Source: Escherichia coli | GTDB lineage: Bacteria > Pseudomonadota > Gammaproteobacteria > Enterobacterales > Enterobacteriaceae | Assembly (NCBI RefSeq): GCF_048403405.1 | Contig: NZ_CP183129.1 | Reading direction: 5' to 3' (one strand) | DNA: 64,000 nucleotides | In this document: piece by piece, positions 2,277 to 61,526 of the stretch | How the letters are laid out: each line of letters starts with the position of its first letter | Numbering within the stretch: the stretch's first letter is position 1 | Notes under the pieces: generated by a model | What the model saw: only the letters and a program-made list of their open reading frames with translations | Database searches by the model: none | What the model was told of the DNA's origin: nothing | Program-made: the position numbers and the translations under genes

Positions 2277-4178
2277 ATGAAACTACAGAACTCTTTTCGC
2301 GACTATACGGCAGAGTCCGCGCTGTTTGTGCGCCGGGCGCTGGTCGCCTTTTTGGGGATTTTGCTGCTGACCGGCGTGCTTATCGCCAACCTGTATAATC
2401 TGCAAATTGTTCGCTTTACCGACTACCAGACCCGCTCTAATGAAAACCGCATTAAGCTGGTGCCTATCGCGCCCAGCCGCGGCATTATCTACGACCGTAA
2501 CGGTATCCCTCTGGCCCTCAACCGCACTATCTACCAGATAGAAATGATGCCGGAGAAAGTCGATAACGTGCAGCAAACGCTGGACGCTTTGCGCAGCGTG
2601 GTTGATCTGACCGATGACGATATTGCTGCATTCCGAAAAGAGCGCGCACGTTCACACCGTTTCACCTCCATTCCGGTGAAAACTAACCTGACCGAAGTAC
2701 AAGTAGCTCGCTTTGCCGTCAATCAGTACCGTTTTCCGGGTGTTGAAGTTAAAGGCTATAAACGTCGTTACTATCCTTACGGTTCGGCGTTGACCCACGT
2801 CATCGGCTATGTGTCGAAAATCAACGATAAAGACGTCGAACGCCTGAATAATGACGGCAAACTGGCCAACTATGCGGCAACGCATGATATCGGTAAGCTG
2901 GGCATTGAGCGTTACTATGAAGACGTGCTGCACGGTCAGACCGGTTATGAAGAGGTTGAAGTTAACAACCGTGGGCGTGTTATCCGCCAGTTAAAAGAAG
3001 TCCCACCGCAAGCCGGACACGATATTTACCTGACGCTGGATCTCAAACTCCAGCAATATATTGAAACGCTGCTGGCGGGTAGCCGCGCAGCGGTGGTAGT
3101 CACCGATCCGCGTACAGGTGGGGTGCTGGCGCTGGTTTCCACGCCTAGTTATGACCCAAACCTGTTTGTTGACGGTATCTCCAGCAAAGATTATTCCGCC
3201 TTGCTGAACGACCCGAATACACCGCTGGTGAACCGCGCTACACAGGGGGTTTATCCTCCCGCGTCTACAGTTAAACCCTATGTGGCGGTTTCGGCATTGA
3301 GCGCCGGAGTGATCACGCGCAATACGACGCTGTTTGACCCAGGCTGGTGGCAACTGCCAGGTTCGGAAAAACGTTATCGTGACTGGAAAAAATGGGGCCA
3401 CGGGCGTCTGAATGTCACAAGATCGCTGGAAGAATCTGCGGATACCTTCTTCTATCAGGTGGCCTACGATATGGGAATCGATCGCCTCTCCGAATGGATG
3501 GGTAAATTCGGTTATGGTCATTACACCGGTATCGACCTGGCGGAAGAACGTTCCGGCAACATGCCTACCCGCGAATGGAAACAGAAACGCTTTAAAAAAC
3601 CGTGGTATCAGGGTGACACCATTCCGGTTGGTATCGGTCAGGGTTACTGGACAGCGACCCCAATCCAGATGAGTAAGGCACTGATGATCCTGATTAATGA
3701 CGGTATCGTGAAGGTTCCGCATTTGCTGATGAGCACCGCCGAAGACGGCAAACAGGTGCCATGGGTACAACCGCATGAACCGCCCGTCGGCGATATTCAT
3801 TCCGGTTACTGGGAGCTGGCGAAAGACGGTATGTACGGTGTTGCTAACCGCCCTAACGGTACGGCGCATAAATACTTTGCCAGCGCACCGTACAAAATTG
3901 CGGCGAAATCCGGTACCGCTCAGGTCTTCGGTCTGAAAGCGAACGAAACCTATAATGCGCACAAAATTGCCGAGCGTTTACGTGACCACAAACTGATGAC
4001 CGCCTTTGCGCCATACAACAATCCGCAAGTCGCTGTCGCCATGATTCTGGAGAACGGCGGTGCGGGTCCGGCGGTTGGTACGCTGATGCGCCAGATCCTC
4101 GACCACATTATGCTGGGTGATAACAACACCGATCTGCCTGCGGAAAATCCAGCGGTTGCCGCAGCGGAGGACCATTAA
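2277..4178 (+). CDS. mrdA: Penicillin-binding protein 2 (elongasome transpeptidase)
   Basis: 633-aa ORF; N-terminal TM segment plus transpeptidase domain; followed by rodA. Confidence 0.95.
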
Positions 4179-4180
4179 TC

Positions 4181-5293
4181 ATGACGGATAATCCGAATAA
4201 AAAAACATTCTGGGATAAAGTCCATCTCGATCCCACAATGCTGCTGATCTTACTGGCATTGCTGGTTTACAGCGCCCTGGTTATCTGGAGCGCCAGCGGT
4301 CAGGATATTGGCATGATGGAGCGTAAAATCGGCCAAATCGCGATGGGTCTGGTCATCATGGTGGTGATGGCGCAAATTCCTCCACGCGTTTATGAAGGCT
4401 GGGCCCCCTATCTCTATATCATCTGTATTATTTTGCTGGTGGCGGTAGATGCTTTCGGTGCCATCTCTAAAGGCGCTCAACGCTGGCTGGACCTCGGTAT
4501 TGTTCGTTTTCAGCCGTCGGAAATTGCCAAAATAGCCGTACCACTGATGGTTGCGCGCTTTATCAACCGCGACGTTTGCCCGCCATCGTTGAAGAACACA
4601 GGCATCGCGCTAGTGCTGATATTTATGCCCACGCTGCTGGTGGCTGCACAGCCTGACCTGGGGACATCAATCCTCGTTGCGCTTTCCGGTCTGTTTGTAC
4701 TGTTCCTCTCTGGCCTTAGCTGGCGTCTGATTGGCGTCGCAGTAGTGCTGGTAGCGGCGTTCATTCCGATTCTGTGGTTCTTCCTGATGCATGATTACCA
4801 GCGCCAGCGCGTAATGATGCTCCTGGACCCGGAATCAGACCCACTCGGCGCGGGCTATCACATTATTCAGTCTAAAATTGCTATTGGCTCCGGCGGATTA
4901 CGCGGCAAAGGCTGGCTGCATGGCACTCAGTCACAACTTGAATTTCTCCCCGAACGCCATACCGACTTTATCTTCGCGGTACTGGCGGAAGAGCTGGGAT
5001 TAGTGGGCATTTTGATTCTGCTCGCTCTCTACATTCTGCTGATCATGCGCGGGCTGTGGATAGCCGCCAGAGCGCAAACCACCTTTGGTCGCGTCATGGC
5101 TGGCGGCTTAATGCTGATATTATTCGTTTATGTCTTCGTAAATATTGGTATGGTAAGCGGTATTCTGCCGGTTGTAGGGGTTCCGCTCCCACTGGTCAGT
5201 TATGGAGGATCGGCGCTAATTGTGCTGATGGCTGGGTTCGGGATTGTAATGTCAATCCACACCCACAGGAAAATGTTGTCGAAAAGCGTGTAA
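4181..5293 (+). CDS. mrdB: Peptidoglycan glycosyltransferase RodA (SEDS family)
   Basis: 370-aa polytopic membrane ORF immediately after mrdA. Confidence 0.95.
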
Positions 5294-59495: not shown

Positions 59496-59648
59496 CTACT
59501 TCTTCGGTTCGTAAGCGAGAACAGCCTTAAACTCAATATTACGTTCCTTCACCGTAAACTCACACAGCGAGTCGCGGACCAGAAGCGTAAATCCCAGCAC
59601 CGTTAAACACAGCACTATGACTGCCACAAGGGCATATTTCGTCAGCAT
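59496..59648 (-). CDS. hokE: Hok-family type I toxin (HokE)
   Basis: 50 aa [31 protein letters not shown]...AYEPKK; GGAGG RBS; Hok-family TM plus conserved Cys. Confidence 0.75.
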
Positions 59649-59745
59649 GTTTATATTGCCTCCATGCGAAGAAGGGACTACCATCCGAGTTGTTCAGGTT
59701 TGGGTAGGTAGCCCCAGGGTGTACTGACCCCAAAAAGTTGGACAG

Positions 59746-60597
59746 TTAAACACGAGGCATATAGGTCTGATTCCGATATTCAATTGGAGTCAGACCTTTT
59801 AATTTCAGGCTAATTCTTCTGCTGTTGTAGTATTCAATATATTCCGTAACAGCATCCTTCAGTTCGCTTATATTACTGAACTCATCAAGATAAAAACACT
59901 CCGACTTTAAGGTTCCAAAGAAACACTCCACCACAGCATTATCCAGACAATTGCCTTTTCTGGACATGCTTTGTTTAATACCATGTTCTTTAAGGATATT
60001 TTGATATCTTCTCATACGATACTGCCATCCCTGGTCAGAGTGCAGAACAGGATGCTCGTGAGGATTAAGCTTTTTGAATGCCTGATCGAGCATATTCTCA
60101 ACCATGTTCATCACTGGTCTTTCCGAAAGGCTGTAAGAAATAACTTCGTTGTTGAAGAGATCTATTACTGGAGACAAATACAGCTTGCGCCCATTGACTA
60201 CAAATTCAGTAACATCGGTAACCCACTTCTCGTTTGGCCGCGTAGCCTTGAAATCTCTTTGGAGAACATTAGGGGCGGTTTGCCCTACCTCTCCTCTGTA
60301 AGAGCGGTATCGCTTGACCTTAATCGCTGCTTTAAGTGAGAGGGTTCCCATCAGGCGCTGAACAGCTTTATGGTTAATCTGTTTCCCTTCTCGATGAAGA
60401 GACAGCGTTACCCTACGGTATCCGTATCGGCCTCTATTCTCGTGATAAATCTCACCAATACGCTTTTTAACGTCCGCATACTTGTCAGGCTTGCTGAGAG
60501 CCTTTAGATGGTAATAAAACGTACTGCGCGGTATCTCCGCAGCCCTGAGAAGCTCATCAAGAGGATAAAACTGCCTTAGCTCGTTGAGTACTTTTAC
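59746..60597 (-). CDS. insK: IS150 orfB (DDE integrase/transposase catalytic part, InsK), expressed by -1 frameshift fusion to orfA
   Basis: Open frame continuous from about 60651 to stop at 59746; no ATG before MGTLSLK (60351); upstream in-frame residues read ...[32 protein letters not shown]...; 5' boundary approximate. Confidence 0.8.
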
Positions 60598-61115
60598 TTT
60601 TTCGTGGGATGAGCTAAGGCTTTCAGCTTTTTTAGATACATAAGCCGCGTTTCAAGAAATCGAACTTGCCTTTCAAGATCCTCAATGCGTCGGTCTTTTG
60701 ACAGCTCCAATGCTGATGCCGCTTTTTCTGGATCAACTGATATTGCAATGTTTCTTTTGGTGCCAATCTTGAGCGCGCGTAAACCAGCTTCTCCGCGCTC
60801 TTCATAGACCTTCAGCCACCTGGCTACAGAACCACTACCAGCAAGCATAAAGTGAGCAGCAGCCTGATTAAGGGACATGTGCTGCTCGATCACAGCTTTC
60901 ACGACCTTAATACGCAACTCTGGATCAGCACTAACGCCTTTAGGTTTGGGAATTAAACCTTTTTCTCCATGTTTTTCATAGAGGGCAACCCATGTCCTGA
61001 CCTGGGTTCGGGGGACACCAAAACGTGCCGAGATGATCCTGTAACCATCATCAGTTGTGAAGTAGTGATTCACGACTTCAAGGCGCTTTTCAAAAGGGTA
61101 TTTTGGCTTTGACAT
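60594..61115 (-). CDS. insJ: IS150 orfA protein (HTH DNA-binding, InsJ)
   Basis: 173-aa ORF ending ...ALAHPTKK. Confidence 0.9.
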   Translation of the reverse strand: MSKPKYPFEKRLEVVNHYFTTDDGYRIISARFGVPRTQVRTWVALYEKHGEKGLIPKPKGVSADPELRIKVVKAVIEQHMSLNQAAAHFMLAGSGSVARWLKVYEERGEAGLRALKIGTKRNIAISVDPEKAASALELSKDRRIEDLERQVRFLETRLMYLKKLKALAHPTKK

Positions 61116-61526
61116 ATTAGGGGCTATTCCATTTCATCGTCCAACAAAATGGGTGCAGTACAGGGTTGATAGAAATATCTCCTGGGGCTTCATCTTTCCA
61201 GACCTCAGAGTAAACCTGAAACCGGAAAGCTTCAGGCACCCGCCGTTATCTTACCCTTCCTCAGCAAAATAGCTGTTTATTTATACAGTGAGTCCTGTTT
61301 CGGACTTCTCACTCCTAATTTGATCAACTGAAGCTGAACCCGTTTTTTTCTGCATGCCTCAATCGTCAAAATTCTTCGCCACCAGCCAGCTCTGCCATAA
61401 CTTGTCACATTGCAAAAGTAGCCAAATTGCTTCAGTCACCATCACCAAAAAAAAGAAACATTCCAGAACTTCCGCATCTCGCCCAGCCGCTCCGACTTCT
61501 ATACTGAATAGAAAACGCCAACATAA

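Follow-up and report, generated by a model that had tools for sequence, protein, structure and literature searches.

An IS150 copy in the hokE leader of Escherichia coli with a canonical A_AAA_AAG heptamer in its orfA/orfB overlap and a predicted downstream hairpin

Introduction

Since 1991 the programmed -1 frameshift of IS150 on the heptamer A_AAA_AAG, which is followed by a stem-loop, has counted as a textbook example. The study of Vogele et al. from that year (Nucleic Acids Res 1991, 19:4377) is said to have placed the signals, A AAA AAG and a potential stem-loop, on an 83-bp fragment; approximately one third of ribosomes reportedly shift frame there, a mutation of the stem reportedly lowers shifting by ~80%, and frameshifting is said to be involved in the synthesis of InsB as well. 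Published frameshifting and transposition experiments on IS150 have made use of the K-12 allele. In IS911 and in E. coli dnaX a Shine-Dalgarno-like stimulator upstream of the heptamer is present in addition to the hairpin downstream. As far as the downstream structure is concerned, IS150 has a simple hairpin with a large loop of 28 nt, whereas IS3 has a pseudoknot.

What IS150 shares with dnaX, IS911 and IS3 is a tandem slip of tRNA-Lys on A_AAA_AAG, an RNA structure 4-10 nt downstream that stimulates the slip, and thereby a set ratio between two proteins translated from a single mRNA (PMC4066793). According to Sharma et al. 2014 (PMC4066793), A_AAA_AAG ranks with the top three E. coli heptamers in efficiency, and 72% of the scored heptamer sites in elements of the IS1 and IS3 families are either A_AAA_AAG or A_AAA_AAA; we read the A_AAA_AAG cluster of that work as IS150. 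Synthesis of the IS150 transposase requires programmed frameshifting (PMC8254509), and a list of features that define the subgroup around IS150 is available (PMC5771124).

Here we describe a copy of IS150 from E. coli for which, judging from its sequence, we estimate a probability of roughly 0.93 that OrfAB is made through a programmed -1 frameshift at the heptamer A_AAA_AAG, ahead of a hairpin. Both reading frames, orfA and orfB at -1 to it, would be carried by a single mRNA. During translation of orfA, ribosomes would be slowed at the heptamer by a 10-bp hairpin starting 6 nt further on, and a fraction of them would slip back by one base, with two tRNA-Lys re-pairing on AAA AAA. Slipped ribosomes would then go on in the orfB frame to complete a 456-aa OrfAB (InsAB) transposase with the junction ...RLMYLKK, and those that do not slip would melt the hairpin, translate ten further codons and terminate at a TAA within the loop, yielding the 173-aa OrfA. 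Both the slippage at the heptamer and its stimulation by the hairpin we infer from published work on IS150 and on the IS3 family. The frameshift cassette of this copy is real, canonical and part of biology that is already known, and its relevance is small beyond the correct annotation of the transposase.

Results and Discussion

Identity and Boundaries of the Element

The features discussed in what follows are collected in Table 1, with positions given in the window, that is, the whole stretch of 64,000 nucleotides that was analysed. That the element is IS150, as proposed in the initial annotation, is borne out by the complete identity of its 1443 nucleotides (1443/1443, 100%) to copies, found across many complete genomes of E. 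coli, that RefSeq annotates as 'IS3-like element IS150 family transposase'. Matches to the element are present in 2864 of 5426 genomes. Alignment with the IS150 copy of K-12 MG1655 (mobile element NC_000913.3 3720633-3722075, insJ/insK) gives 1439 identical bases out of 1443 (99.7%), with 4 substitutions, 0 indels and 0 new stops. A stop or a frameshift within orfA or orfB had been named as the finding that would speak for a non-autonomous copy; the four substitutions create no premature stop.

Table 1. Positions of the IS150 element, its reading frames, its frameshift cassette and its differences from the K-12 copy
Feature	Coordinates	Strand	Basis
Complete IS150 insertion sequence, 1443 bp	59720..61162	(-)	Sequence identity to annotated copies and K-12 alignment
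Left terminal inverted repeat (IRL), starts 5'-TGTACTG	61132..61162	(-)	Inverted-repeat pair
Right terminal inverted repeat (IRR), ends CAGTACA-3'	59720..59750	(-)	Inverted-repeat pair
3-bp target-site duplication, left copy, CCC on transposase strand	61163..61165	(-)	Flank comparison, empty site
3-bp target-site duplication, right copy	59717..59719	(-)	Flank comparison, empty site
[quoted passage not shown]
orfB in the -1 frame of orfA; 301 codons without a stop; DDE (rve) catalytic domain	59746..60651	(-)	ORF list, Pfam
In-frame AUG, orfA M159, two codons before heptamer	60639..60641	(-)	Sequence
Slippery heptamer A_AAA_AAG; read in the zero frame as K162 (AAA) and K163 (AAG); putative -1 frameshift site	60627..60633	(-)	Motif search
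6-nt spacer CUGAAA, heptamer to stem	60621..60626	(-)	Folding
Stem 5' arm GCCUUAGCUC of putative stimulator	60611..60620	(-)	Folding
Hairpin loop, 28 nt; holds G_AAA_AAG (60603-60597), orfA stop TAA (60596-60594) and variant base 60595	60583..60610	(-)	
Stem 3' arm GAGCUAAGGC, perfect complement of 5' arm	60573..60582	(-)	Folding
A here, G in K-12; orfA stop TAA vs TGA; orfB-frame GTA vs GTG, both Val	60595		
C here, T in K-12; synonymous, TAC vs TAT	60511		
G here, A in K-12; Gly here, Ser in K-12	60456		
T here, C in K-12; Val here, Ala in K-12	60200		

The ends of the element form a 31-nt pair of imperfect inverted repeats (71% complementary) with the 5'-TG start and CA-3' end that are characteristic of the IS3 family (PMC6211511), and the short target duplication of the family is present as well, with the length of 3 bp that applies to IS150. 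Read on the transposase strand, the flanks are ...CAACCC, then IS150, then CCCTGGGG. The empty site, when rebuilt, is found as a single piece in 4886 genomes, and in strain 7/2 there is only one GGG at the junction; a lone GGG at the empty site and CCC on both flanks of the element establish that the insertion is clean and precisely bounded. It is the leader of the hokE/sokE toxin-antitoxin locus, in the ybdK-hokE context, that this copy interrupts, and this leader is already known as a recurrent target of IS150. The K-12 copy, also 1443 bp long, agrees with the window copy in its inverted repeats, in its ORF layout, in OrfA and in the heptamer, 6-nt spacer and 10-bp stem, but it sits in the hokA leader and lacks a target duplication, whereas the window copy sits in the hokE leader and has one of 3 bp.

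Copies that are 100% identical occur in at least three unrelated contexts, ybdK-hokE (the window, and also strain TUM14771), glyS-hokA (strain CFSAN061763) and plasmid CP088650.1, and the presence of identical copies at unrelated sites, a plasmid included, implies recent transposition of exactly this allele. The locus is an intact IS150 copy (IS3 family, IS150 subgroup) that is probably mobile and autonomous.

Reading Frames and Predicted Proteins

The orfA protein is exactly InsJ_ECOLI and is found on at least 1000 contigs. Its reading frame, on the minus strand from 61115 to 60594, ends ...CAT CCC ACG AAA AAG TAA just as the initial annotation had it, and the -1 frame is indeed open past this junction into the catalytic domain, from 60651 to the stop at 59746; the peptides quoted there are right as well. 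Pfam matches in the latter frame are to rve (98.6 bits), rve_2 and HTH_21. Over the scanned stretch 60651-60404 of the orfB frame no ATG, GTG or TTG is present, the first listed start being the ATG of MGTLSLK at 60351, in agreement with the earlier observation that there is no ATG before MGTLSLK; with no start codon of its own in the window copy, orfB is reachable only through a -1 frameshift from orfA, as had also been stated. Two overlapping ORFs (here by 58 nt, 60651-60594), with orfB at -1 and lacking its own start, are the arrangement of the IS3 family.

Fusion of the two frames by a tandem slip on the heptamer gives a protein of 456 aa with Pfam matches to HTH_28, HTH_21, rve, rve_2 and rve_3 and a score of 413 bits against the NCBIfam model NF033516 'IS3 family transposase' (cutoff 160). 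Its DDE triad consists of D301, D361 and E397, and K404 lies seven residues past the Glu. The features described for the subgroup, an N-terminal HTH, a C-terminal DDE (rve) domain, the spacing D(57-60)D(35)E and a Lys seven residues after the Glu (PMC5771124), are all found in this protein. It should be kept in mind that 456 aa results from any -1 shift inside the overlap, so that the length of the product cannot locate the slip site.

The in-frame AUG just before the heptamer is replaced by GUG in some IS150 copies and by ACG in ISKpn8. A short InsB-type product, which would need the frameshift too, may begin at this AUG, a role suggested by what Vogele et al. 1991 reportedly found.

Slippery Heptamer and Hairpin

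The initial annotation regarded the full A-AAA-AAG heptamer as missing and saw in this a departure from what is expected of IS3-family elements. The heptamer is present, at 60633..60627 and inside the interval 60590-60655 that had been singled out, and it is followed by the expected stem-loop, so that the cassette is the canonical one. The concern about a non-canonical site arose because the orfA stop had been inspected and not the sequence 30 nt upstream of the slippery element proposed there.

The phase of the heptamer relative to orfA is 2, corresponding to the X_XXY_YYZ arrangement, and it lies within the 58-nt overlap. An AnG slippery motif, in this case A_AAA_AAG, located in the overlap is among the features by which such elements are recognized (PMC5771124, PMC4066793). 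For the 10-bp stem, in which 10/10 pairs are formed, an energy of -14.9 kcal/mol is predicted for the hairpin alone, and the predicted fold of an 81-nt region comes to -18.3 kcal/mol, with z = -3.15 relative to shuffled sequences. Stimulators in the IS3 family begin 4-10 nt past the motif and have an unfolding energy of at least 7.6 kcal/mol (PMC4066793), values with which both the spacer of 6 nt and the predicted energy of the stem are in accord. The bare motif AAAAAAG is not rare, occurring 20 times in the 64-kb window as compared with 14 +/- 4 expected. What is non-random is not the motif alone but its phase, its position inside the overlap, a spacing of 6 nt to a perfect stem of 10 bp, and conservation in diverged relatives.

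The heptamer includes a homopolymeric run of six A's, and it could be supposed that RNA polymerase slips on this run, with an A lost or gained in some transcripts and no ribosomal frameshift involved. Documented cases of slippage by RNA polymerase concern runs longer than six A's, and A6 is short for efficient slippage by the E. coli enzyme. In addition, a conserved hairpin at the correct spacing and a strict X_XXY_YYZ phase are traits of ribosomal frameshifting and not of transcriptional slippage. Some IS3-family elements do make use of the latter, as documented for IS1447 with +1 slippage (PMC6211511), but the expression of IS150 has been ascribed to ribosomal frameshifting in published work (PMC4066793, PMC8254509), and we find a transcriptional origin of OrfAB in the present copy very unlikely.

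No Shine-Dalgarno-like sequence could be recognized by eye upstream of the IS150 heptamer, and a scan for sigma-70 promoters and terminators gave nothing above expectation. A search of Rfam returned no match on the frameshift cassette, which means that no family model covers it; a mir-15 match at 60841-60900, scoring 20.5 bits where the gathering score is 57.3, is due to chance. A pseudoknot between loop and downstream sequence (GUAAAA with UUUUAU just 3' of the stem) was considered by eye and set aside, the pairing being A-U-rich and the loop unconserved in relatives.

Conservation of the Cassette

The heptamer, the spacer and both arms of the stem are unchanged in 7/7 of the IS150 and ISKpn8 copies sampled. 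ISKpn8, a member of the IS150 subgroup of the IS3 family carried on Klebsiella and Enterobacter plasmids, has 94.7% DNA identity to the window copy over its full length and resembles it in the heptamer, spacer and stem arms and in having G_AAA_AAG and a stop in the loop; it differs in its orfA stop, TGA, in the ACG that takes the place of the in-frame AUG and in one more substitution in the loop.

A more distant comparison is afforded by four members of the IS3 family (L005-L008) that are carried on plasmids of Klebsiella and Pantoea and show 64-67% DNA identity. The best-conserved stretch of the region in these relatives is the block CTAAAAAAGCTGAAAGCCTTAG (in codons, from TAT CTA AAA AAG through CTG AAA GCC to TTA G). 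The heptamer is kept in three of the four, at ~65% identity, and in the remaining one, L006, A_AAG_AAG is found where the others have the heptamer, which is therefore not universal in the subgroup. Pairing of the stem is complete across 7 sequences (70/70 cells, 100%) and falls to 16-51% when the partner columns are slid. Covariation in the stem consists of one compensatory change of a C-G to a U-A pair and one change of U-A to U-G and, with 50/500 shuffles reaching the observed score and 7 sequences available, offers thin support for the structure.

These comparisons also bear on the element that the initial annotation had taken to be slippery, G-AAA-AAG, which is present as stated (60603..60597) just before the orfA stop. 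Ribosomes could in principle shift there by a single tRNA-Lys slip on A_AAG, perhaps aided by the stop codon, with G_AAA_AAG serving either as the main site or as a minor second one. It is in the right phase and within the overlap, it is kept among IS150 and ISKpn8 copies, and the A_AAG that it contains is the most shift-prone of the E. coli tetramers, with shifting of up to 5.6% when a strong stimulator is present (PMC4066793). However, the tetramer alone is ~10-fold weaker than the best heptamers (PMC4066793), and a full heptamer with a well-spaced hairpin is available 30 nt upstream. A ribosome at G_AAA_AAG sits in the loop and has already melted the 5' arm, so that the hairpin cannot act on it, and the sequence downstream of this position is predicted to fold with only -7.4 kcal/mol (z = -0.06), an energy that 76/200 shuffles attain as well. 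The four relatives at ~65% identity are without G_AAA_AAG, their orfA ending earlier, just past the 5' arm, and a product joined at this position is absent from a collection of ~15 billion proteins. We conclude that G_AAA_AAG is loop sequence and not a programmed site, and consider slippage there very unlikely; the heptamer upstream remains the preferred site of the shift.

Junctions in Database Proteins

Loci that are identical to the window copy in DNA are annotated with a CDS in two pieces, of 1370 nt, labelled 'programmed frameshift'. The RefSeq-style product, ...MYPKKAESL... with the substitutions of the window copy, is found on 433 contigs, and the product of a tandem slip, ...MYLKKAESL..., is on record as well. 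The Pro in the former comes from the annotation pipeline, in which the C immediately 5' of the heptamer is read a second time (TAT C|CT AAA AAA GCT); ...MYLKKAESL... is the expected biological product. Both database forms, with Pro or with Leu, put the junction at the heptamer. The transposase is best annotated as a single 456-aa product joined at 60627, where the 3' G of the heptamer is read twice, and not at the orfA stop.

Differences from the K-12 Allele

The initial annotation had raised the question of whether the frameshift window matches the reference exactly. In the slippery site and the two arms of the stem there is no difference from K-12, but the match is not exact: base 60595, in the loop, is the sole difference within the frameshift window, and it is silent in OrfAB. 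Among the seven IS150 and ISKpn8 copies sampled an A at this position occurs only in the window copy, the other six having G.

Such a change might be taken to indicate a non-autonomous relic, in which the G-to-A substitution at 60595 or one of the other three would impair expression to the point that OrfAB is not made in a useful amount. The A does weaken the hairpin, whose predicted energy goes from -17.0 kcal/mol to -14.9 kcal/mol through loss of a 3-bp inner helix, it abolishes the GTG at which the K-12 insK CDS annotation starts, and the 91-nt cassette allele is a minority form, the best match in 149/3395 matching records from a search with 5843 matching places. Against an impaired copy, the substitution is synonymous in OrfAB (GUG to GUA), its sole effect on orfA is a different stop codon, both frames are without stop or indel, and none of the substitutions falls in the heptamer, the spacer or the arms of the stem. 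The element moreover has its two inverted repeats and a clean duplication of 3 bp, and the 100%-identical copies at no fewer than three unrelated sites, one of them on a plasmid, are hard to reconcile with a relic, which we judge to be highly improbable.

A subtler consequence can be imagined. Because the A at 60595 changes the stop codon, the GTG and the inner helix together, it might shift the InsA : InsB : InsAB ratio and hence the rate of transposition or cointegration in this lineage; alternatively, the A_AAG next to the stop might act as a low-level second slip site, giving rise to an isoform of InsAB in which the 10-residue linker is different. We think such effects unlikely. Nearly all of the cassette records other than those of the window allele are one or two mismatches away from it.

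Results and Discussion

The IS150 copy in the window divides the hokE/sokE leader in two, with one part of the leader on either side of the element, while the hokE/mokE open reading frame remains intact. An Rfam search recovers the upstream part of the leader as a match to RF01794 ('sok') that lies above the gathering score, at 63.7 bits, and that extends weakly into the end of IS150; the model continues on the far side of the element as far as the hokE start codon (see the table). In a set of 5426 E. coli genomes the leader locus is found without interruption in 4886 and in the IS150-interrupted arrangement in 474.

Features of the split leader and of the IS150 copy (window coordinates)
Feature	Position	Strand	Remark
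Leader part, upstream	61163-61241	minus	RF01794 model positions 1 to ~85 (61241-61163)
Leader part, downstream	59640-59719	minus	RF01794 model positions ~86 to 157 (59719-59640)
hokE/mokE ORF	59496-59684		Intact; separated from upstream leader by IS150
Stretch compared with CFSAN061763	59717-61165		Counterpart is 2998-4446 of its glyS-hokA locus; IS150 copies 100% identical
Junction modelled by RefSeq/PGAP	60627-60636	minus	C upstream of heptamer read twice
Allelic base	60595	minus	In orfA stop, orfB frame and hairpin loop

In strain CFSAN061763 the identical IS150 lies in the paralogous hokA leader, at the alignment column homologous to the insertion point in the hokE leader; it is oriented like the window copy and is flanked by an AAG target duplication. 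The hokA IS150 of K-12 lies ~2 nt or less from this insertion position but differs from the CFSAN061763 copy in being oppositely oriented and in having no target duplication. New IS150 insertions adjoining hokC, hokE and mokB have been found recurrently in evolved REL4536 lines (PMC5419217), which, taken together with the hokA-leader copies, suggests that hok leaders are a documented hot spot for IS150. In strain 7/2 (NZ_CP023820.1, 647577-648775), where the site is empty, the hokE locus is duplicated in tandem, with two hokE genes annotated ~350 bp from each other, and 'hokE (x2)' is annotated under the match in several further strains.

The RefSeq IS150 transposase reads MY-P-KKAESL at the frameshift junction, where MY-L-KKAESL is expected. 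No slippage on A_AAA_AAG would yield Pro; the residue appears because RefSeq/PGAP models the -1 shift in IS150-family transposases by re-reading the C 5' of the heptamer. A look-up in the protein collection returned the Pro form from 433 contigs and the Leu form from 2. One IS3-family relative of ~65% identity, on Klebsiella michiganensis plasmid p8BG, has A_AAG_AAG (at about 670-690 of the compared locus) where the other relatives have A_AAA_AAG, with the spacer and stem kept; this element is either a decayed copy or a user of a weaker A_AAG-type slip.

The orfA stop is TAA in the window copy and TGA in K-12, ISKpn8 and 4 other sampled copies. The same allelic base gives GTA in the orfB frame, as opposed to the GTG of K-12 that is annotated as the insK start, and removes a predicted 3-bp CAC/GUG helix from the hairpin loop, the predicted hairpin energy being -17.0 kcal/mol with this helix and -14.9 kcal/mol in the window copy. 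Of 3395 records, only 149 have precisely this allele as their best match.
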